Shown piece by piece: positions 603-32,720 of a DNA stretch of 64,000 nt. Below the pieces are notes generated by a model. That model ran no database searches, had not been told where the DNA came from, and saw only the letters and a program-made list of their open reading frames with translations. The position numbers were made by a program, and so were the translations under genes. This DNA is from an uncultured Candidatus Peribacteria bacterium (lineage in GTDB: Bacteria > Patescibacteriota > Gracilibacteria > Peribacterales > Peribacteraceae). Within the stretch, counting starts at the first letter, position 1. Each line of letters opens with the position of its first letter. The stretch is taken from the NCBI GenBank assembly GCA_964391185.1, contig CAYMIX010000002.1, positions 90,968 through 154,967 of the forward strand. The letters run 5' to 3'.

Positions 603-1925
603 TTACGTATGTTGGCGTTTTTTGGCAATCGTAACTGCTGTAGCAATAAGCACCCACAGTCCGTAACTAACAGCCGCATCCTCAAATGCGTGAAGGAAGA
701 GTGCTGCGACACTGAGCCCGATGAATGCGACTCGCAACTCGTTTCTCGTAACTCGATTTATTCCACGGAACACTAACACCATAAGAGCGATATAAAGCGC
801 GAAGCCAATCCATCCCATCTCAGCTCCTATCTGTAAGTACCAGTTTTCCGGAAGGAACGGACAGGAACATACACGGTCCACCGGCTGCACTTGCGTATCG
901 CCAAGGAACACGCAGAGGTCCGGGCGAGCTGCCGCCCACGATGGATCGTCTGTTTCACGGAGTAATACGCATGCATCGCTCACACGATTGCTCGCTGGCC
1001 CCGCCATGCCCAATCCCCGTCCGAACGGATGACGGATCATTGTATGAATTGCTTGGATAGGACCTTCGATATGACCGCGTGACGATGTGATACGAACGAT
1101 GATCGACGGGAAGAAAATACTCAGGAGAATTGCCGCGGCAACAATCGTTCCACCGATGCTGAAGTGCATGCGGCGCGATGTTTGCTTGATATATGGCCAT
1201 GCGACAATCGCAACCATGATAAATGCAGATATCCATGCGGCGCGTGAGAAAGACATTGCTATCGCGATCAAACATACAATAGAGACAGCTTTCTTTCTCG
1301 TAATCGCAACAGCCAACGGAATAAGCATCCACAATCCCAACTGATTGGGACCACTCATGGTCGACTGGATTCTGCGAAGTCCCGTTTCCCCAATCATCTG
1401 GAATGCAGCGATTGGCTTACCAGGAACATAGAGCGAATGGAGATCTGAGTACCCGAGCCAGTGGAAGAATGCAGATGGAAGGAAGAAGCTGATGATTCCG
1501 TAGCCTGCGACAATCGAACCGACGATCAAGAGCGTCCTTTTTGCATGGATGAAAAAGAGTTCGGTCCACGGCACGCGACGCAAAACAAGGAATGCGACAA
1601 GCGGAACAAAGTCGTAGCGAAATCCAAAGGTGTAGAGGCTCCAGTTTTTGTGCGTCGTCATTGTGACGACAACAGATAGAACGAGCAGTGCGAGAATGAT
1701 TGCGTCGATTTTATCGATTCTTATTTTCGGGCGAGACATCAGCCACTCGATACCAGCGATGATAAGAATCAGCGCGAGCAGTCCTTCTTTCCAAAGAGCC
1801 AGCCAACTGAGAGGTCCTTGGTCTGGCCCGACAATGATTCGTGTTCCAACAGTGACCAAAAACGCATGAAACGGCAGCACCACAAAAAGCAGTAAGGAAA
1901 GCCATTCTCGAAGAGGTCGTAGCAT
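603..1925 (-). CDS. O-antigen ligase / Wzy_C-like polytopic membrane protein
   Basis: ORF 603..2012 has many hydrophobic segments and an SRAAWISAFIMVAIV region typical of the O-antigen ligase family. ATG 1925 (MLRPLREWLSLLLF) preferred as start. Confidence 0.55.
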   Translation of the reverse strand: MLRPLREWLSLLLFVVLPFHAFLVTVGTRIIVGPDQGPLSWLALWKEGLLALILIIAGIEWLMSRPKIRIDKIDAIILALLVLSVVVTMTTHKNWSLYTFGFRYDFVPLVAFLVLRRVPWTELFFIHAKRTLLIVGSIVAGYGIISFFLPSAFFHWLGYSDLHSLYVPGKPIAAFQMIGETGLRRIQSTMSGPNQLGLWMLIPLAVAITRKKAVSIVCLIAIAMSFSRAAWISAFIMVAIVAWPYIKQTSRRMHFSIGGTIVAAAILLSIFFPSIIVRITSSRGHIEGPIQAIHTMIRHPFGRGLGMAGPASNRVSDACVLLRETDDPSWAAARPDLCVFLGDTQVQPVDRVCSCPFLPENWYLQIGAEMGWIGFALYIALMVLVFRGINRVTRNELRVAFIGLSVAALFLHAFEDAAVSYGLWVLIATAVTIAKKRQHT

Positions 1926-4791: not shown

Positions 4792-5436
4792 TTACACAAT
4801 CTTCGCCGTGCTCTTTTGCTCCATTCCCTCAACCTTTCGCACTTCTTTCTTGGTGACGGTTTCACCATCAAACCAGTAAATGTACGGTGTGCAGAATGGA
4901 ATCTCGAGAGTTGCTGTCGTTTCCTCATCAAGATTATCCAAATGCATCATGATTGGGCGGAGGCTATTTCCGTGTGCTGCGACAATGACTGTCTTTCCCT
5001 CTTTCAGAAGAGGCTGAATATGTTCTTGGAAATACGGCCACACACGTTTCACACAATCTTCGATACTTTCACCATGTGGCGGACGCGTGGAAAAGCTGCG
5101 TCGCCAGAGATGAACCTGCTCTTCGCCGTATTTTTTCATCATCTCGGCCTTGTTTAACCCCTGCAGATCTCCGTAGTGACGTTCGTTCAATGCTTTGTCT
5201 GCAACCGTAGGTACATTAGTCTGCCCATGCCCTTCCAGAATTCCTTTAAGCGTTAGTTGGCTACGTGAAAGCGCAGAAACGAATGCGTTATCAAAGGTAA
5301 AGTCTTTTAATGATTTACCACATAACACGGCATCCTTAGCCCCTTGCTCGGTCAAAGGCACATCGGTCCAGCCGGTAAAACGGTTCTCAACGTTCCATAG
5401 CGATTGTCCGTGACGGACGAGAATAAGGGTTCCCAT
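4792..5436 (-). CDS. gpmA: 2,3-bisphosphoglycerate-dependent phosphoglycerate mutase
   Basis: LILVRHGQSLWNVENRFTGWTDVPLTEQG and AAHGNSLR motifs. Confidence 0.9.
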   Translation of the reverse strand: MGTLILVRHGQSLWNVENRFTGWTDVPLTEQGAKDAVLCGKSLKDFTFDNAFVSALSRSQLTLKGILEGHGQTNVPTVADKALNERHYGDLQGLNKAEMMKKYGEEQVHLWRRSFSTRPPHGESIEDCVKRVWPYFQEHIQPLLKEGKTVIVAAHGNSLRPIMMHLDNLDEETTATLEIPFCTPYIYWFDGETVTKKEVRKVEGMEQKSTAKIV

Positions 5437-26407: not shown

Positions 26408-27497
26408 ATGGACGAACTTCTTCAGAAGCTTCAGGAATTGCAATCGGCAGTGAACATGGGAAAGGACTCTCTTTGAGGCACGACAAGTTCCTCAGCAGAT
26501 AGCCACGTTGGAAACCAAGGCAGCCGCGCCGACTATTTGGGATGACCAAAAAGCTGCGAATGAATTATTCGCACAGCTTCGTGGACTCAAGAAGCAATGG
26601 GAACCGGTGATAGAACTCAAGAGTGATGTTGATAGTTTGGTCGAGATGATTCCGATGGCATCAGCAGATGACCTCGCGGGAATGCAAACTGATTACGAAG
26701 CAATGCTCAAGCGTTGGCAGGTACTAGAACCAATGTTGTACCTCAGCGCAGAGTTCGATCACAACAACGCATACGTCACCATCAGCGGAGGAGCTGGAGG
26801 AACAGAAGCTCAAGACTGGGCCGGGTTCTTGCTGCGCATGTATTTACGCTACTGCGAACGCATGGAATGGAAGACGACGCTCCTCGATAAAACAGACGGA
26901 CAAGAAGCGGGCATCAAGACTGCAACGTTCCTCGTGGAAGGAGATCCTGCCTACGGATATCTGAAATGCGAAAAGGGTACACACCGCTTGGTACGACTCT
27001 CCCCTTTCAATGCAAAAAGTCTGCGCCAGACAAGCTTCGCGCTTGTGGAAGTGCTGCCGGAAATAAAGAACACCGATGAAATCAAAATCGAAGCGAAAGA
27101 TATCCGTGTCGATACGTATCGCTCGGGAGGCGCGGGAGGACAACACGTGAACAAGACTGACTCTGCGATTCGCATCACGCACTTACCTACAAATATTGTT
27201 GTCGCATGTCAGACAGAGCGAAGCCAGATCCAAAACCGTGAGCGCGCGTTCAACATGCTCTACGCAAAGCTCCTCGAAAAAAAGCGCCAGGAAGAGCTCG
27301 ATCAAAAACATGAACTGAAAGGCGCATCACAATCCGCGGACTTCGGTCAGCAGATTCGTTCGTACGTATTGCATCCGTATCAGATGGTGAAAGACCTCCG
27401 CACGGATTATGAAACATCGGATACACAGGGTGTATTAGACGGGGACATTCAAAGCTTTATAGATGCAGAACTAAAACTTCTCGCCCGCGAGGGATAA
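26408..27497 (+). CDS. prfB: peptide chain release factor 2, with programmed +1 frameshift at 26471-26476
   Basis: Frame 0 reads MDELLQKLQELQSAVNMGKDSL then TGA at 26474. The +1 frame continues EARQVPQQIATLETKAAAPTIWDD..SGGAGGQHVNKTDSAIRITH. Confidence 0.92.
26462..26478 (+). other. RF2 recoding site (internal SD-like AAGGA, CTT TGA G slippery stop)
   Basis: AAGGACTCTCTTTGAGG. Classic CUU-UGA shift site. Confidence 0.85.
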
Positions 27498-27500
27498 CCA

Positions 27501-28265
27501 TCATTTAGTGCGTGGATTGAGTGGTACAAATATACTTGTGCGCTTTTTGTATTCCGCAAAGCCAGGCTTGGTTGCCATGCGCGCTTCTGCAAGGGGCACG
27601 CCTGATACAAACAAAATAAGAAGTGTGATTGATATCGGTCCAGCAAAACTAAGCCATGCACTTGCAGCCGCAAAAGCAATGATTCCAATACCCCACCATT
27701 GCACCACCTCGCCGAAATAATTTGGATGGCGTGAATAACGCCACAAACCGTTCATCATCAGCTTCCCTTTGCTCTTTGCATCACGAACAAACGCAGAAAG
27801 TTGGCGATCTGCCATCGTCTCAACAATAAAACCAATAATCCATACAGCCGTACCTACCATGGCCACCGGGCCTATGCGCGTATCAGAGGAGCGCGATGCG
27901 ATGAGTAGTGGACTTATTACAATAAACAACAGAACAGACTGAAGCACGTAGACCTGTAAAAAGCTCCGCACGATAAACCATGTGCCCCATTGTTTCCTCC
28001 ATGTTGCATAGCGATGATCTTCATCTGTACGAGCAATCCTACGACCAATGTGCCATGACAAACGCACGCCCCACACAATGATAAGTGTTGCGATCGTGCG
28101 TGCTGTGACACTTTCAGCAGCATACGATGCAAACAAGAATGCTGAGATACACACCGCATTAAAACCCCAGGCCATATCAGCCACATCATTTCTTTTGAGT
28201 ATGAGGGAAATGATAAACCACGCGCATGTGAGACTCGCCAAGAGAAGTGCTACCTGCAAGATCAT
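27501..28265 (-). CDS. DUF1295 / steroid 5-alpha-reductase-like membrane protein
   Basis: LWRYSRHPNYFGEVVQWWG motif. ATG 28265 lies 2 nt after the upstream stop. Confidence 0.7.
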   Translation of the reverse strand: MILQVALLLASLTCAWFIISLILKRNDVADMAWGFNAVCISAFLFASYAAESVTARTIATLIIVWGVRLSWHIGRRIARTDEDHRYATWRKQWGTWFIVRSFLQVYVLQSVLLFIVISPLLIASRSSDTRIGPVAMVGTAVWIIGFIVETMADRQLSAFVRDAKSKGKLMMNGLWRYSRHPNYFGEVVQWWGIGIIAFAAASAWLSFAGPISITLLILFVSGVPLAEARMATKPGFAEYKKRTSIFVPLNPRTK

Positions 28266-28267
28266 GA

Positions 28268-28666
28268 TCAACGTGCGAAGAAGCGAACGATCATCACGGC
28301 AATCACTGAAACTGCCCCCGAAAGAAATGCGCCCCATGCAAGATCCACAACAGTGACAACCAATGGCCAGTTTTTAACCACAGCCTGATTCGTGAGGTCA
28401 TACGTAGCGTAGGCCACAAGACCGAGGAATGCGCCATTCAAGAAAATACGAAGCACGGAATCAGATAGATGTGGAGTTACCACAAAGTATGAAAGCGCCC
28501 CTACATACAATGCATAAAAAAGAATGGCCGCCCACCACTGAGGGCTCTCAGACATCAGAAAACCGATGTGTGTTTTGTAGAAATTTCTCGCCACTAACCC
28601 GAGCCACAAACCGTCGAGTATTAGGAATGAAACGAGGGTCGCGAAGTATGTGATGATTATGTGCAT
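28268..28666 (-). CDS. DUF2177-like membrane protein
   Basis: MHIIITYFATLVSFLILDGLWLGLVARNFY. Confidence 0.6.
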   Translation of the reverse strand: MHIIITYFATLVSFLILDGLWLGLVARNFYKTHIGFLMSESPQWWAAILFYALYVGALSYFVVTPHLSDSVLRIFLNGAFLGLVAYATYDLTNQAVVKNWPLVVTVVDLAWGAFLSGAVSVIAVMIVRFFAR

Positions 28667-29400
28667 ATGAGGGAACTTACCACTTCCCACTTATCACTCA
28701 AAAGTTCTTCATAATATTTCCCCTTCTTCCAATAAATTTTCCGTGCCTTCGCAGACTTTTTTGATCGAATGATGCGACAACGATCCCCTTCCACCTGAAG
28801 CGCTGCACAATCATCGAGTGCAATCGCAACCCCACGAACCTTCTTCATCATATTCTTGAGGCTCTTCGGACGATCTTTCTCGGTGTTGTAGTGAGGACAG
28901 TGAAGCGCATCAATCAGTCCTAACGTCTTCACCCGAATATAATCCGCTGAGGGATTACTGAACTTGAGCGAATCAGAATTTCCTTCGCGGAACCAACAGA
29001 TGGACCCGGCGGATAACCCGCAACAAACAGTTCCCTTCTTTGCAACTGCGATCAGAAGTTTATCAACTCCCAATTTTCTCCACAGTTTCATCATCCGCAT
29101 GGTGTTTCCTCCTCCAACATAGATGATGTCTGCACGTTTAATGCGCGCCGCGATTTCTTTGGATGACGGCCGATCACGATATAAGAGAAGTGTTTCGACG
29201 GTGCATCCCAAACGATCTCCATATTGTTTGATAAATGCTTCGGTATACGGAATAGAATCTTCACTCGCAGTCGGAATAAACAACACTCGTGGATGTTTCT
29301 TCTTCGCCATCTTCACAATTTCCTGGTCAATCAATGTGGTTGCAGGTTTGTTCTTGGGACGATGAATACTTCCTCCTCCGATGGCGATGACGTGGAGCAT
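28657..29400 (-). CDS. peptidase S51 (dipeptidase E / cyanophycinase-like)
   Basis: VIAIGGGSI, IYVGGGNTMRMM, GLSAGSICWF. ATG 29400 preceded by TACAAT-N6. Confidence 0.75.
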   Translation of the reverse strand: MLHVIAIGGGSIHRPKNKPATTLIDQEIVKMAKKKHPRVLFIPTASEDSIPYTEAFIKQYGDRLGCTVETLLLYRDRPSSKEIAARIKRADIIYVGGGNTMRMMKLWRKLGVDKLLIAVAKKGTVCCGLSAGSICWFREGNSDSLKFSNPSADYIRVKTLGLIDALHCPHYNTEKDRPKSLKNMMKKVRGVAIALDDCAALQVEGDRCRIIRSKKSAKARKIYWKKGKYYEELLSDKWEVVSSLICT

Positions 29401-29433
29401 GGCGAAATTGTACACTTCTTATGCACTGAACTC

Positions 29434-30363
29434 TTATTGATTCCTTGGATCAGTCGCGAGTTGCCCAATTCCATGATGCCAATGAATAAAACCATTCGCT
29501 CCACCGCAATTTTGATAAATCCAGACAACGTGTTCGGGCTTAGTGCATACGAGTAATTTTTGATGTCCAACTGGACCAAAGGCACAAATAAGAACTCTTC
29601 CATTGGGAACCGTGCTCAGCACATTATCGACCGTATCGAAAGTATCTTTTATAGGTAAGGGCAGCAAGAACATCGCGGCTGTTGCGTTTTTTTCATTTAC
29701 ACCAATTTCCTGCGGACGCTCTGTAACTCTTGGAACATCTTTACGATCACGATTTAAATCAAAAATAGTGACACTTCCAAGGCCTCTAGATCCACTGACT
29801 GTTGGTACATATGGCGAGGCAGCAGAAGCGCCTGAAGCAGTTGCTACTGCCGTGACAGTTGGCCATGTCTCATTACTTACTTGAATACTCGCAGGGGGAA
29901 TACCAATGTCCTCCGGATTTTTACCAGCTGTTTTGAGCAAACCCAATATCTGCAGTAATTGTGTTCGAAATGTGTAGGCCCTCGGATCAAATACAGACAT
30001 TTGCAACCAAAGCTCTTGTGCTTGTATTAATGCAAGAGAGCTTGATGAATCTTCGATATTGCGTCCATAAATTTCTTTAAAAGCCGTACATACTTTTGCC
30101 CAATTTTCCGATGTTAGTGGACAATCAAGAAAGGCCATCCTCACACCTTCTGGACATGAAATGCTATAAGCAAATCGTATGGCATTAGGAAAGGGACTGC
30201 CTATTTGCAATGTAACTACTTCATCCTCACCAACAACGTTTGCAAAATTCTGAAGCGTCATTCCAGCATCTGTTTGTCTGCTAGCATCTCCCGATTTCAA
30301 AATATCGAATTTGAGTCGCGTAGCATCCAACTGCAGCTGAGATAATTTATCTAAAAACTTCAT
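29434..30363 (-). CDS. hypothetical protein (309 aa), AT-rich orphan next to tRNA-Ser
   Basis: The track ORF 29434..30825 reads through the tRNA. The first ATG after the tRNA is 30363 (MKFLDKLSQ). Confidence 0.5.
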   Translation of the reverse strand: MKFLDKLSQLQLDATRLKFDILKSGDASRQTDAGMTLQNFANVVGEDEVVTLQIGSPFPNAIRFAYSISCPEGVRMAFLDCPLTSENWAKVCTAFKEIYGRNIEDSSSSLALIQAQELWLQMSVFDPRAYTFRTQLLQILGLLKTAGKNPEDIGIPPASIQVSNETWPTVTAVATASGASAASPYVPTVSGSRGLGSVTIFDLNRDRKDVPRVTERPQEIGVNEKNATAAMFLLPLPIKDTFDTVDNVLSTVPNGRVLICAFGPVGHQKLLVCTKPEHVVWIYQNCGGANGFIHWHHGIGQLATDPRNQ

Positions 30364-30500
30364 ATTCTTCTCTCTGCCTTCGTGCCTCAGGTTGAACTGA
30401 CCTGTCGCAATTTCGTTTTGCCCCTCATTACCCCCAGCCGCAGCAAGATTACTGACCATAATAATATAATTATTGCACAAATATTTAGTATGTAAAGCAA

Positions 30501-30592
30501 TGGCGGAGAGAGAGGGATTCGAACCCTCGAGACCCTTTTGGGGCCTACGCGATTTCGAGTCGCGCGCCTTCGACCAACTCGGCCATCTCTCC
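30501..30592 (-). tRNA. tRNA-Ser (anticodon CGA), CCA encoded
   Basis: Folded by hand: acceptor GGAGAGA/TCTCTCC, anticodon stem CGCGA/TCGCG with loop CUCGAAA, long variable arm, T-arm GAGGG-TTCGAAT-CCCTC. Confidence 0.95.
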
Positions 30593-30761
30593 AGTTCCGC
30601 TGCAACGCACAATCCTTCCACCCTGTGCGCTGAGCGGAGGCCATTGTGAAGCCATGATGTGAGCTTTGGCAAGCATGTGTCATAAGGCGATCCGACGGCA
30701 AATAGAGACCTCGTCAATTGCTTATTCACTCGACAATTCAACGTGAATTTGCGATTGAGGC

Positions 30762-30791
30762 TTGCAAAAGGGTTTGAAAGGCCCCTAGAAT
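30762..30791 (+). promoter_or_regulatory. sigma70-like promoter TTGCAA-N18-TAGAAT
   Basis: Read directly, 33 nt upstream of ATG 30824. Confidence 0.45.
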
Positions 30792-30823
30792 CCCTATCAC
30801 ATTTATTCATTACCCCCAGATCC

Positions 30824-31183
30824 ATGAGTTACGTAGTTGCCTCCAAGGTAAAAGAACTCGTCAATGGTAAGGGCATGATGGCATCCGGTGACCTCGCAGA
30901 ACACCTCAGCAAGCACGTTGAGATGTGGCTCGGCCAGGGAATCAAGGCTGCTCAGGCCAATGACCGTAAGACAGTTCGCGGCGCTGATTTGCTCGTCTTC
31001 GCTCCAGGCAAGATGGCACTTACAGTTGCTTCCAAGGTTAAGGAATTCGTCAATGGCAAGAACATGATGTCTGCTGGCGACCTCGCCGAGCACGTCAGTG
31101 GTCTTGCTGAATGGCTTCTCGAAACGGCAGTAAAGCGCGCAGGTGCTAACGGCCGCAAGACAGTCCGCGGAGAAGATCTATAA
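30824..31183 (+). CDS. tandem (doublet) histone-fold protein, DUF1931-like
   Basis: Two 63-aa repeats: VASKVKELVNGKGMMASGDLAEHLSKHVEMWLGQGIKAAQANDRKTVRGADL and VASKVKEFVNGKNMMSAGDLAEHVSGLAEWLLETAVKRAGANGRKTVRGEDL. The C-terminal A(N/H)GRKT(V/I)(R/K)xED(L/I) matches the archaeal histone L2/alpha3 signature. Confidence 0.6.
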   Translation: MSYVVASKVKELVNGKGMMASGDLAEHLSKHVEMWLGQGIKAAQANDRKTVRGADLLVFAPGKMALTVASKVKEFVNGKNMMSAGDLAEHVSGLAEWLLETAVKRAGANGRKTVRGEDL

Positions 31184-31208
31184 TAGATCTCTTCATTAAA
31201 GCTAGAAA

Positions 31209-31232
31209 TAAAGCCCCGTAAGGGGCTTTTTT
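31209..31232 (+). terminator. intrinsic terminator
   Basis: AAGCCCC-GTAA-GGGGCTT followed by TTTT. Confidence 0.85.
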
Positions 31233-31263
31233 CGTGGAGCAAAGCCGCTAAACTATGCCAACA

Positions 31264-31353
31264 ATGACGATCGCTGTTGTAGGCACCCGTCTTCGTTCAC
31301 CTCGGGCGAACTACGCCGGGCAGGCCGGCTACTTCCCCTCTTCTACTAAATGA
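31264..31353 (+). other. 29-codon uORF starting with a synonymous copy of the first 8 ugd codons; stop overlaps the ugd ATG (ATGA)
   Basis: ATGACGATCGCTGTTGTAGGCACC versus ugd ATGACTATAGCCGTAGTTGGTACC. Both encode MTIAVVGT. The remainder is a family E repeat. Confidence 0.35.
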
Positions 31354-32720
31354 CTATAGCCGTAGTTGGTACCGGGTACGTTGGGCTCGTAAGCGCCGCA
31401 TGTTTCGCGGAGCTTGGGCACACGGTGTGGGGCGTGGATATCGACCCGGCAAAAGTTGCGATGCTTAAGGAAGGAAAAAGCCCGATCTACGAACCGGGAC
31501 TCGAAGAACTTCTGAAGCAGGGCCTCGCAAGTGGACGACTTATTTTCACGACTGATTTAAAAGAAGCACTTCCACATGTATCCATCCTCTTCTCCGCTGT
31601 TGCGACTCCACAGGGTGAAGATCACAAAGCCGACCTGCGTGCGATTTTTGCGGTGGCAGAAACTGTCGCATCGTATGCAGAAAAACCTTTACTCTTCGTC
31701 AATAAATCGACTGTTCCTGTTGGAACAGGAGAGAAGTGCGAAGATCGCATCAACGCAAAACTGAAAGAACGTGGAAAAGATTTCCATATCACTGTGGTCA
31801 GTAACCCCGAATTCCTCCGTGAAGGAATGGCGGTGCCAGACACGATGATGCCGGAGAGGATTGTGGTTGGAATCAATGGGAGAAATCAGAAGAATCAGAA
31901 GAATGAAGGCTCCTCTGATTCTTCTGATTCCTTTGACTCCTCTGAATCCTTAATGGAGGAACTGTATCGCCCCATCACCCGCGTCGGTAAGCCTTTGATT
32001 TTTATGTCCCGCGAGAGTGCGGAGATCGTGAAGTACGCAGCGAATGCATTCCTCGCGACGAAGATCAGCTTTATCAACATGCTCACAGAGCTTGCGGAAA
32101 AGACTGGTGGAAATATTCGCGACATCGCCACAGGTCTTGGATTAGACAGTCGCATCGGACCACGATTCCTCCATGCTGGAATTGGTTACGGTGGAAGTTG
32201 CTTTCCTAAGGATGTGAAAGCTCTGATGGCGACGGCAAAGGAATACAACGTGCCGATGCCGATAGTAGAAGCAGTTGATGCAGTGAACGATTATCAGAGG
32301 AAGCGATTCATCGAATTGATTCTGAAAAATCTCCCAGCGAATTCAGCGGTTGCAGTCTGGGGTCTCGCATTTAAACCAAAGACCGATGATATGCGCGAAG
32401 CTCCGAGTATTGATGTGATCCACGCACTTATTGGCGCAGGCCATACCGTGAAAGCGTATGACCCAGCAGCGATGGAACGTGCGAAACCACTGATGCCACC
32501 AAACCTCGTGTATACCCCTTCTGCAATGGAAGCGATCCCAGGAGCGGATGCATTGATCGTGGTAACAGAGTGGGATGAGTTCCGAGGAGCAGACTTAAAA
32601 GCTATCAAACAATCGATGCGCGGTGACCTCCTTTTTGATGGTCGTAATATCTATGAGCCAGCTGAAGTAAAAGAAGCTGGTTTGCGATACTATGGCATCG
32701 GTATTTCCTCTCAATTATGA
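31350..32720 (+). CDS. ugd: UDP-glucose 6-dehydrogenase
   Basis: MTIAVVGTGYVGLVSAACFAELGH..GGSCFPKDV. Confidence 0.9.
   Translation: MTIAVVGTGYVGLVSAACFAELGHTVWGVDIDPAKVAMLKEGKSPIYEPGLEELLKQGLASGRLIFTTDLKEALPHVSILFSAVATPQGEDHKADLRAIFAVAETVASYAEKPLLFVNKSTVPVGTGEKCEDRINAKLKERGKDFHITVVSNPEFLREGMAVPDTMMPERIVVGINGRNQKNQKNEGSSDSSDSFDSSESLMEELYRPITRVGKPLIFMSRESAEIVKYAANAFLATKISFINMLTELAEKTGGNIRDIATGLGLDSRIGPRFLHAGIGYGGSCFPKDVKALMATAKEYNVPMPIVEAVDAVNDYQRKRFIELILKNLPANSAVAVWGLAFKPKTDDMREAPSIDVIHALIGAGHTVKAYDPAAMERAKPLMPPNLVYTPSAMEAIPGADALIVVTEWDEFRGADLKAIKQSMRGDLLFDGRNIYEPAEVKEAGLRYYGIGISSQL
31880..31950 (+). repeat. family D hairpin repeat inserted in frame in ugd
   Basis: AATCAGAAGAATCAGAAGAAT..GATTCTTCTGATTC (13-bp stem). 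Encodes GRNQKNQKNEGSSDSSDSFDSSES. Confidence 0.75.

Follow-up and report, generated by a model that had tools for sequence, protein, structure and literature searches.

A fused doublet of alpha3-truncated bacterial histones in the Peribacteria

The stretch analysed here, a 64,000-nucleotide window from a contig of an uncultured Candidatus Peribacteria bacterium, carries on its plus strand a gene for a 119-residue protein of 12.7 kDa (computed pI 9.48, net charge +4; Table 1). An initial annotation of the window had described it as a histone-fold doublet gene standing alone with its own promoter and terminator, and the reading frame that it gave, from ATG to TAA, holds. The order prfB, tRNA-Ser, histone gene and ugd is syntenic in 15 Peribacteria MAGs, and the histone gene and the downstream ugd-epimerase gene are kept together in 13 of the 13 doublet loci that reach far enough downstream. 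Around the histone gene lie prfB, a tRNA and genes for sugar-nucleotide enzymes, with no conserved partner gene adjoining. The histone gene directly adjoins tRNA-Ser(CGA); in the stretch between prfB and the tRNA, gene content varies among genomes and the orientation of the tRNA flips. Comparison of the doublet with 14 orthologs gave dN/dS values of 0.06-0.15. Because the orthologs all begin with MSYVV and the plus-strand frame is under strong purifying selection, we rejected a 146-aa GTG-started ORF (30743) and two antisense ORFs (30803-31093 and 30952-31242) that compete for the same DNA. The doublet is a real, conserved, stand-alone gene of an uncultured, ultra-small CPR bacterium.

Table 1. 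Features of the histone-doublet locus, in window coordinates
Feature	Position	Strand	Basis
Distal motif CGTCAATTGCTT	30712..30723	+	Near-invariant across 15 aligned upstream regions
-35-like element TTGCAA	30762..30767	+	Promoter scan
-10-like element TAGAAT	30786..30791	+	Promoter scan; 18 nt past the -35
5' leader, short, pyrimidine-rich, no Shine-Dalgarno	30792..30823	+	Sequence
Histone-doublet ORF, 119 aa	30824..31183	+	ATG at 30824
Histone fold 1, aa 1-56	30824..30991	+	AF2 secondary structure, phmmer, half-specific conservation
Linker, aa 57-63, LVFAPGK	30992..31012	+	Column frequencies; modelled pLDDT >90
Histone fold 2, aa 64-119	31013..31180	+	AF2, phmmer, R105 invariance, NJ tree
Stop TAA, then in-frame TAG	31181..31183	+	Sequence
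Intrinsic terminator AAAGCCCC-GTAA-GGGGCTTT, T-run 31227-31232	31210..31232	+	RNA fold

The TTGCAA-N18-TAGAAT promoter proposed initially was recovered by a promoter scan, with 9 of 12 consensus matches over the -35/-10 pair, and it is conserved across orthologs. Around the -35 lies a conserved core, CTTGC (30761-30765), in which CTTG is invariant and the next C nearly so across 15 loci; the -10 reads TAGAAT or TACAAT in 14 of the 15 and diverges in the remaining one (L014). The positions of both elements are kept in the 14 orthologous loci with upstream sequence and in two singlet loci, excepting the -10 of L014. Further upstream, the distal motif (consensus CGTCAATTGCAT, with the palindromic core CAATTG) is 39 nt from the -35 here and about 50 nt from it in one ortholog group, and it also precedes the singlet histone genes of two loci (L016 and L018). 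It is possibly a regulator site or a promoter-upstream element. We rejected it as a genome-wide repeated site: allowing up to two mismatches, the window holds 6 matches against 10 expected, that is, no enrichment. The C/T-rich leader is common to all orthologs. Shine-Dalgarno-like motifs occur at about 10% of 48 ORFs, which marks the genome as SD-poor, and Ca. Peribacter riflensis is likewise SD-scarce and lacks CCUCC (PMC10783764). An Rfam search for RNA elements in the leader and its vicinity returned the tRNA alone. Downstream, the claimed strong terminator folds as GCCCC-GTAA-GGGGC followed by T6, at -16.6 (centroid) to -18.9 kcal/mol with a z-score of -2.4, and every ortholog has an equivalent GC hairpin and T-run 3' of the gene. 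A simple terminator scan missed this hairpin.

Residues 1-56 and 64-119 align without gaps at 35 of 56 identical positions (63%; BLASTP, E 3e-22), in agreement with the internal duplication of 63-residue period and roughly 60% identity noticed at the outset. The two halves match at 64% of DNA positions, with synonymous sites saturated, so this is an old duplication rather than an artefact of assembly. The linker that joins them follows a conserved L-x-F-x-P-G-K pattern in the column frequencies of 33 main-clade doublets. AF2 places the elements of fold 1 at residues 6-15 (alpha1), 16-23 (L1), 24-45 (alpha2), 46-52 (L2) and 53-56 (alpha3), and those of fold 2 at 69-77 (alpha1) and 87-108 (alpha2), followed by L2 and a short alpha3 that reaches the C-terminus. 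Candidate triplets and longer multiplets (P0001, P0003, P0009, P0034 and others) were discarded, being 119-aa doublets or 56-aa singlets whose upstream starts had been miscalled.

Profile and structure searches both gave a histone-fold match. The protein scores 24.0 bits against PF00808 (CBFD_NFYB_HMF), above the gathering cut-off of 21.4 (E 4.7e-5), and 43 of 46 doublet homologues match this profile at E<0.01. The AF2 model (pLDDT 97, pTM 0.88) contains alpha1-L1-alpha2-L2-alpha3 in each repeat. Its best whole-chain Foldseek matches are all double histone folds, namely HMk (1f1e, E 3.5e-5, TM 0.67), giant-virus doublets, among them those of Melbournevirus, and single-chain H2A-H2B; matches in a viral structure library were giant-virus histone doublets only. 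Half-chain searches retrieved HLp at TM 0.94-0.95 (0.6-0.9 A) and HBb at TM 0.81. In the single-chain model the two halves pack antiparallel, a predicted pseudodimer equivalent to a histone dimer. Both the histone fold of each half and the pseudodimer had been proposed initially, and the profile score, the model and the leading Foldseek matches speak for them. The claimed helical topology stood too, but not the full archaeal alpha3, which here is a single turn (residues 53-56 and 116-118) following a 22-residue alpha2. Schwab et al. 2024 (PMC11390915) define alpha3-truncated prokaryotic histones by an alpha3 of 3-4 residues and an alpha2 that falls 4-5 residues short of the nucleosomal one, and by their predicted helices both halves fit this definition. 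The L2 R-K-T motif and the Arg-Asp clamp (R48-K49-T50...D55 and R111-K112-T113...D118) are invariant or near-invariant in 46 sequences.

An analogy had also been drawn with DUF1931-type proteins such as Aq_328 and with HMk. The double fold in one chain is indeed common to all of these, but membership of DUF1931 did not survive: the protein scores 14.3 bits against PF09123 (cut-off 21.8), matching profile positions 21-53 of 138 alone, and Foldseek hits to DUF1931 structures (1wwi, E 7.9e-3; 1r4v, E 0.1) are weaker than that to HMk. The DUF1931 proteins (Aquifex Aq_328, 1R4V; Thermus 1WWI) are bacterial single-chain double histone folds as well, but they form a separate sequence family of about 150 aa in which the DNA-binding residues, invariant in the Peribacteria doublet, are reportedly missing. 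No role is known for Aq_328 or 1WWI, which are without DNA-binding residues (PMC13088155; PMC11390915), and DUF1931 doublets are thought not to bind DNA (PMC11390915). Assignment to the archaeal nucleosomal histones (NCBIfam NF043032) was rejected at 25.2 bits against a cut-off of 50. HMk (Methanopyrus kandleri, 1F1E) and the Marseilleviridae doublets (7N8N, 9CVT), matched at E 3.5e-5 to 1.8e-4 and TM 0.6-0.67, likewise build a pseudodimer from two folds in one chain; they differ in being nucleosomal-type, with full-length alpha2 and alpha3 and four-helix-bundle tetramerisation, are only 16-18% identical to the Peribacteria doublet, and stem from independent duplications. The doublet form appears to have been reached independently in several lineages (Altimarinota, Nitriliruptorales, Poseidoniales).

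To our knowledge, characterisation has reached only two bacterial histones: HBb bends or coats DNA as a dimer, and HLp wraps it as a tetramer. The Peribacteria protein is a doublet of short, alpha3-truncated histones of this HLp/HBb type, its halves being 36-40% identical to HLp (Leptospira) and HBb (Bdellovibrio). In phmmer searches of the PDB, half 1 matched HBb (8fvx/8cmp, E 3.3e-6) and HLp (9qt0, E 5.3e-6), and half 2 matched HLp (6.3e-6), HTkC (1.1e-3) and HBb (4e-3). HLp (Leptospira perolatii; 9QT0-9QT2; PMC12701072), which with HTkC represents the face-to-face (FtF) histones, is 36-38% identical and has the same fold length, down to L1 and the single-turn alpha3, and both proteins end in an Asp and a hydrophobic residue; also kept in the doublet are the A-S-K of its 'paired ends of helices', its L1 glycine and L2 threonine, and its RD clamp. 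The Peribacteria protein is fused and asymmetric, whereas the 63 residues of HLp make up a singlet, four copies of which assemble symmetrically and wrap about 60 bp (PMC12701072); HLp T56 is replaced here by Lys. HBb (Bd0055 of Bdellovibrio bacteriovorus; 8FVX, 8CMP, 9EZZ; PMC10627809, PMC11317129) is the best match of half 1, at about 40% identity, and shares the shortened alpha2, the truncated alpha3, the alpha1 S-K-x-K, the RKT loop and the RD clamp. It is, however, a singlet; its L1 is longer by one residue (N22), its C-terminal tail is longer too, and it lacks the FtF Asn and Arg found in the doublet.

We mapped the FtF residues by aligning the halves to HLp with phmmer, using the numbering of PMC12701072. 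The HLp tetramer residues R49/N53/R55 are present in half 2 as R105/N109/R111, each 100% conserved in the 33 main-clade doublets, whereas half 1 has A42/N46/R48, the Arg at the R49 site having been replaced (82% Ala in the same set) and the C-terminus of this half not being free. At these sites, then, Asn stands in both halves (N46 and N109 are both invariant) and the R49-type Arg in half 2 only; the halves differ further in M34-W35 versus W97-L98. In an NJ tree half 2 clusters with singlets. Half 1 is the derived half and half 2 the ancestral-like one.

Those singlets, 56-aa proteins of Peregrinibacteria such as ALM10226.1 of Ca. Peribacter riflensis, belong to the same lineage, share the MSYVVASKVKE start and are 55-59% identical to each doublet half. 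Their genes have the promoter arrangement, distal motif and terminator of the doublet, with prfB nearby, and in one of them (L016) tRNA-Ser and the gene order are identical to those of the doublet loci as well. Unlike the doublet, each consists of one fold and must homodimerise, its alpha2 lacks Trp, and the KRA-x-x-NGRKTVR interface residues are kept in all copies. The singlets are evidently the ancestors of the doublet. Because they carry the same promoter arrangement, and one of them occupies the same prfB/tRNA-Ser position, in-place duplication and fusion are indicated, and the computed comparisons put the origin of the doublet at this very site. Within the Peribacteria (Peregrinibacteria, CPR), a 56-aa singlet gene underwent tandem duplication and in-place fusion and retained its terminator, its promoter and the motif upstream of it. 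ALM10226.1 appears in Supplementary Table 1 of Hocher et al. 2023, and the Peregrinibacteria and Patescibacteria entries listed in the accessible part of that table are singlets only; we found no paper that discusses histones of either group.

The initial annotation had further remarked that the window holds no HU/IHF-type gene. By tblastn, neither the window nor 15 related loci, a small part of each genome, contain an HU/IHF-like sequence. The absence thus stands, but it carries no weight as evidence, because the window covers about 5% of a genome of about 1.2 Mb and because hupB is annotated in the complete genome of Ca. Peribacter riflensis, where a singlet relative also occurs. Since a related complete genome has HU, the role of main nucleoid protein need not fall to the histone. 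Leptospira has no HU, in contrast to at least one Peribacter genome. Codon bias in the doublet gene is the strongest of 49 window ORFs: its effective number of codons, 38.3, lies below the 51.5 +/- 4.0 of the 48 others (lowest 39.1), and 11 of 12 lysine codons are AAG, although 3.3% of length-matched chunks from other genes are equally biased and 119 codons make a weak expression proxy. Judged by its sequence, the doublet is probably a highly expressed core gene of its CPR lineage. It would in this resemble HBb, whose stand-alone gene is highly expressed alongside HU.

Residues invariant in 46 doublets (S7, R48, K49, T50, R52, D55, S70, K73, R105, R111, T113 and R115) map to the DNA contacts and the RD clamp of HLp and HBb, both of which bind DNA in crystal structures (PMC12701072, PMC11317129), and the mapping finds DNA-contact residues in both halves. 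Some contacts are not kept: HBb K16/HLp K21 correspond to N14/N77, and HBb R57 to A54/E117. The net charge of the whole protein is modest, and some orthologs have a half 2 close to neutrality (pI 6.1-6.4). We infer the DNA binding, abundance and oligomeric state of the doublet, whose most likely function is that of an abundant, sequence-non-specific nucleoid (DNA-packaging) protein; the conserved DNA-contact residues, basic pI, codon bias and conserved promoter speak indirectly for it. Each half retains the residues that touch DNA phosphates in the HLp and HBb crystals: the A-S-K start and second lysine of alpha1, the glycine of L1, and in L2 the R-K-T motif, held in place by the Arg-Asp clamp. 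The pseudodimer would most likely bind DNA non-specifically, bending or wrapping it, with the paired ends of alpha1 and a symmetric pair of L1/L2 sites as its contacts, and next to HU it would act as an abundant nucleoid-associated protein. Fusion has let the halves diverge, and the tetramer Arg and a free C-terminus survive in half 2 only; given that distribution, any higher-order assembly is probably a dimer of doublets joined mainly via half 2. We put the probability of this reading as a whole, an in-place-fused double alpha3-truncated histone that acts as a non-specific DNA-binding pseudodimer and abundant nucleoid-associated protein with assembly led by half 2, at about 0.7.

Its most serious competitor, which we hold to be rather unlikely, is a strict stand-alone DNA-bending pseudodimer that, like the HBb dimer or HU, does without face-to-face assembly; fusion would then stabilise the dimer, a possible advantage in a tiny cell if the protein is present at low concentration. 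That half 1 matches HBb as well as HLp fits such a protein, and since half 1 has lost the R49 equivalent (A42) and has its C-terminus buried in the linker, a closed torus with two equal interfaces would not be able to form as it does in HLp (PMC12701072). Schwab et al. did not obtain confident multimers of HBb-like 'bacterial dimer' histones (PMC11390915). Those histones, however, lack the interface residues (PMC11390915), whereas half 2 retains the whole R/N/R triad, R105 included, and both invariant Asn residues are in place. Moreover, the C-terminus of the doublet is identical in kind to that of HLp, down to its hydrophobic last residue, and the halves superpose better on HLp than on HBb.

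A bolder variant, for which the odds are clearly poorer still, is that fusion has produced an obligately asymmetric histone 'heterodimer' that has one FtF interface left and would assemble on DNA unlike either the HLp tetramer or the HBb dimer, possibly as a hinged open dimer of doublets or as a polar stack. If true, such an assembly would be a distinct histone-based chromatin unit for ultra-small CPR cells.

Non-chromatin roles have been proposed for DUF1931 pseudodimers and for eukaryotic TAF or Sos histone domains. By analogy, the doublet might be a histone-fold scaffold or partner and not a general DNA binder, which we consider improbable. The known bacterial double folds without DNA-binding residues (Aq_328, 1WWI; PMC13088155, PMC11390915), the modest net charge with a half 2 near neutral in some orthologs, and the HU of a related genome would suit this role. 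Against it stand the failed DUF1931 threshold, the invariance of the R-K-T, A-S-K and RD-clamp residues in both halves, the DNA-bound crystals of the nearest solved relatives, HLp and HBb, and the lack of a conserved partner gene beside the histone. Finally, although the adjoining tRNA, the changeable prfB-tRNA stretch and the recognised category of phage histones (PMC11390915) might suggest recently acquired mobile or viral cargo at a tRNA integration hotspot with no core chromosomal role, this is highly implausible and already largely refuted by the synteny with ugd-epimerase in 13 loci, the strong purifying selection, the promoter arrangement common to singlet relatives (one at the same position), the lack of any phage match by tblastn or of any phage-type structural match, and the location of the variable genes beyond the tRNA, on the side opposite the histone.

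The doublet thus belongs to a known kind of protein, the bacterial histones, and what is new is its fused alpha3-truncated form. In the reviews that we searched, the bacterial double histone folds described are of the DUF1931 type, thought not to bind DNA (PMC11390915); fusion into a doublet is now also seen for the DNA-binding, alpha3-truncated type. Because the protein is small and easy to express, its assembly and DNA binding are directly testable. It offers a first handle on the chromatin of Patescibacteria, a subject on which we found no literature, and a natural experiment on fusion, in which the DNA contacts are symmetric and the oligomerisation surface has turned asymmetric.

The 119-codon open reading frame (ORF) reported at 30762-31232 is the single gene of that region, and its product, the doublet, consists of two related halves: an ungapped alignment of residues 1-56 (half 1) with 64-119 (half 2) has 35/56 positions identical (63%, E 3e-22), in line with the internal duplication of about 60% identity described in the initial annotation. 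The DNA of the two halves is 64% identical with synonymous sites saturated, so the duplication is, by its sequence, ancient and not an assembly artefact. Against 14 orthologs, dN/dS is 0.06-0.15. A longer, GTG-started ORF (30743) is an artefact of mechanical calling, as every ortholog starts with MSYVV and the upstream part lacks protein-level conservation; antisense ORFs over the gene are artefacts of the same kind.

Coordinates of the histone gene and its associated elements (window positions unless a locus is named)
Feature	Position	Strand	Remark
Histone doublet gene	ATG 30824 to TAA 31181-31183	+	119 aa
-35 hexamer	30762-30767	+	
-10 hexamer	30786-30791	+	
Distal motif CGTCAATTGCAT	30712-30723	+	12 nt, core palindrome CAATTG; conserved in aligned upstream regions
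Distal motif in singlet loci	L016 about 4935-4946; L018 about 1144-1155		
Terminator (GC hairpin + T-run)	31210-31232	+	3′ of gene here and in all orthologs

The doublet scores above the cut-off of the Pfam histone model PF00808 (CBFD_NFYB_HMF; 24.0 bits against 21.4) and under that of the NCBIfam archaeal-histone model. Membership of the DUF1931 family, which the initial annotation drew on for comparison, is ruled out by a score of 14.3 bits against a cut-off of 21.8. Among PDB sequences, the two characterised bacterial histones match best, Bdellovibrio HBb at E 3e-6 (8fvx/8cmp) and Leptospira HLp at E 5e-6 (9qt0); half 2 alone matches HLp (6e-6) better than the archaeal face-to-face histone HTkC (1e-3) and HBb (4e-3). 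An AlphaFold2 model built from an alignment of 46 doublets (pLDDT 97, pTM 0.88) places helices at residues 6-15, 24-45 and 53-56, and at 69-77 and 87-108 before a final turn; the alpha1-L1-alpha2-L2-alpha3 topology anticipated for each half thus occurs twice, with alpha3 reduced to one turn. In Foldseek searches of the PDB, all top matches were double histone folds (Methanopyrus kandleri HMk, E 3.5e-5; Melbournevirus doublets; engineered single-chain H2A-H2B), 1wwi and 1r4v, both of the DUF1931 type, ranked lower, and a viral structure library returned giant-virus histone doublets only. Taken together, the predicted topology and these matches support well, as a prediction, the earlier view that the two folds of one chain would form a pseudodimer. 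One half superposes on a single HLp chain with TM 0.94-0.95 (0.6-0.9 A) and on HBb with TM 0.81. By predicted fold and by sequence, the doublet is an alpha3-truncated prokaryotic histone, intermediate, in the scheme of Schwab et al. 2024, between 'face-to-face' and 'bacterial dimer' histones and nearer HLp.

In crystal structures of HLp and HBb, three elements contact DNA phosphates: the first turn of alpha1 (A/T-S-K plus the lysine two residues on), L1 (T/S and G) and L2 (K/T-T, fixed by an Arg-Asp clamp) (PMC11317129, PMC12701072). Across 33 main-clade doublets, the equivalent positions are conserved in both halves (half 1/half 2: A6/A69, S7/S70, K8/K71, K10/K73, G22/G85, R48/R111, K49/K112, T50/T113, R52/R115 and D55/D118). 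Because these positions are kept in both halves and the protein is basic (pI 9.5), we infer that the doublet would bind DNA non-specifically through a surface with two-fold pseudo-symmetry. In the literature reached, bacterial double histone folds are of the DUF1931 type, which is said to lack DNA-binding residues (PMC13088155; PMC11390915).

The halves diverge at the positions where HLp builds its tetramer. HLp R49, N53 and R55 touch the partner's C-terminal residues (PMC12701072); half 2 has R105, N109 and R111 at 100% conservation, and its C-terminal Leu is free, whereas half 1 has A42, N46 and R48 and continues into a conserved linker, L-x-F-x-P-G-K. The alpha2 tryptophans, missing in the nearest singlets (56-aa, one-fold relatives), are staggered (M34-W35 versus W97-L98), which fits asymmetric core packing. 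By analogy with HBb, the doublet might instead be a stand-alone DNA bender, and this is the main rival; our best guess from the residue pattern is that two doublets join as a dimer, with half 2 as the main junction. HBb coexists with HU in Bdellovibrio, and the same is probably true of the Peribacteria histone: as first noted, no HU/IHF gene is found in the window, a small part of the genome, and the annotation table of the complete Candidatus Peribacter riflensis genome has hupB (K03530, 92 aa) beside topA (PMC4736985 supplement).

All 15 related doublet loci from species-representative genomes belong to Candidatus Peribacteria or Peregrinibacteria metagenome-assembled genomes (72-87% identity). 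In the protein database, 119-aa doublets make up about 50 clusters, named 'hypothetical protein' at NCBI and 'histone H3/H4' at JGI. In loci long enough to show it, prfB is commonly followed by a variable stretch, tRNA-Ser(CGA), the histone gene, ugd and an epimerase gene, in that order. Other Peribacteria have singlets; Hocher et al. 2023 had already tabulated several of them in their supplement, ALM10226.1 of Ca. Peribacter riflensis among them. Because two singlet loci share with the doublet a CTTGCA-N17/18-TAGAAT promoter, the distal motif GTCAATTG(C/A)AT, a terminator and a nearby prfB, and one also tRNA-Ser, the doublet arose in place, when a singlet coding region was duplicated and fused. 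Half 1 and half 2 sequences fall into separate clades of a neighbour-joining tree, that of half 2 adjoining the singlets. In doublets from Altimarinota, Nitriliruptorales and others, the two halves of a protein group with each other, a sign of independent duplications that is tentative, as the tree has 56 columns and no bootstrap. When 1.8 billion cluster representatives were searched with a profile, 1460 relatives emerged; dozens of separate doublet clusters (114-135 aa) are among them, and some of these are archaeal (Poseidoniales). Six relatives (P0116, P0120, P0124, P0129, P0131 and P0135) are HBb-like doublets that combine L2 motifs of the RKTVM type with the longer L1 seen in Bdellovibrionota histones. 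They and the doublets of Altimarinota, Nitriliruptorales and Poseidoniales suggest several independent fusions of alpha3-truncated histones. Four distant relatives (P0100, P0114, P0187 and P0195) carry an N-terminal hydrophobic, signal-peptide-like segment ahead of a conserved SKPKEIVVVGSKVKE start, with one or two histone folds behind it; they look like exported or membrane-anchored proteins, which would be odd for DNA binders.

At saturated divergence, both hexamers of the reported TTGCAA-N18-TAGAAT promoter are kept in 14/15 aligned upstream regions, and the distal motif is conserved likewise; the strong terminator was also borne out. The distal motif lies 39-53 nt 5′ of the -35 hexamer, in two spacing classes, in all singlet and doublet histone genes examined from Peribacteria, and has no further copy in the window; it may serve as a binding site for a regulator, perhaps in autoregulation. 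Codon usage is the most biased of 49 window ORFs (effective number of codons 38.3 versus 51.5 +/- 4.0; AAG for 11/12 lysines; no GCG, GTG or CTG), consistent with, though not proof of, high expression. The short, pyrimidine-rich leader (30792-30823) has no Shine-Dalgarno (SD) motif, a genome-wide property: about 10% of 48 long window ORFs carry a motif resembling SD, and a published listing gives Ca. Peribacter riflensis as SD-scarce and without a CCUCC anti-SD (PMC10783764). Many window genes have a TAnAAT-like -10 about 10-30 nt from the ATG and pyrimidine-rich leaders (for example 31325-31349 and 30792-30823), which with the SD scarcity suggests very short leaders or leaderless mRNAs and agrees with the missing anti-SD.

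Among the neighbours, prfB (release factor 2; 26408-27497, +) has a classical programmed +1 frameshift: the ATG at 26408 starts a 22-codon frame ending in CTT TGA G (26471-26477), and the +1 frame runs on into the 329-aa ORF listed from 26508. SD pairing stimulates this frameshift in E. coli, which makes it notable in a genome that elsewhere uses such pairing little. The stretch from prfB to tRNA-Ser(CGA), whose orientation flips among Peribacteria genomes, spans about 0.3-6 kb with variable gene content across the 15 doublet loci; here (27501-30592) it encodes a DUF1295 membrane protein and a Peptidase_S51 protein and includes a 309-aa ORF (29437-30363, -) with no Pfam match and no counterpart in other loci. 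The listed 463-aa ORF (29434-30825, -) is a calling artefact, because it crosses the tRNA-Ser gene and the histone promoter; the real gene within it plausibly begins at an internal Met (MKFLDKL..., 30363). UDP-glucose 6-dehydrogenase (31350-32720, +) has a low-complexity insert, NQKNQKNEGSSDSSDSFDSSES (about residues 176-200), separating its N-terminal and central domains.

Our literature search found no published work on histones in Patescibacteria or Peregrinibacteria. Hocher et al. mention singlet and doublet size classes in general terms; the alpha3-truncated doublet architecture is recurrent in public data, with no description found in the literature. Histone doublets evolved repeatedly, so this one is unsurprising in principle; it offers a clean, testable instance of asymmetry enabled by fusion and a first way into CPR chromatin.
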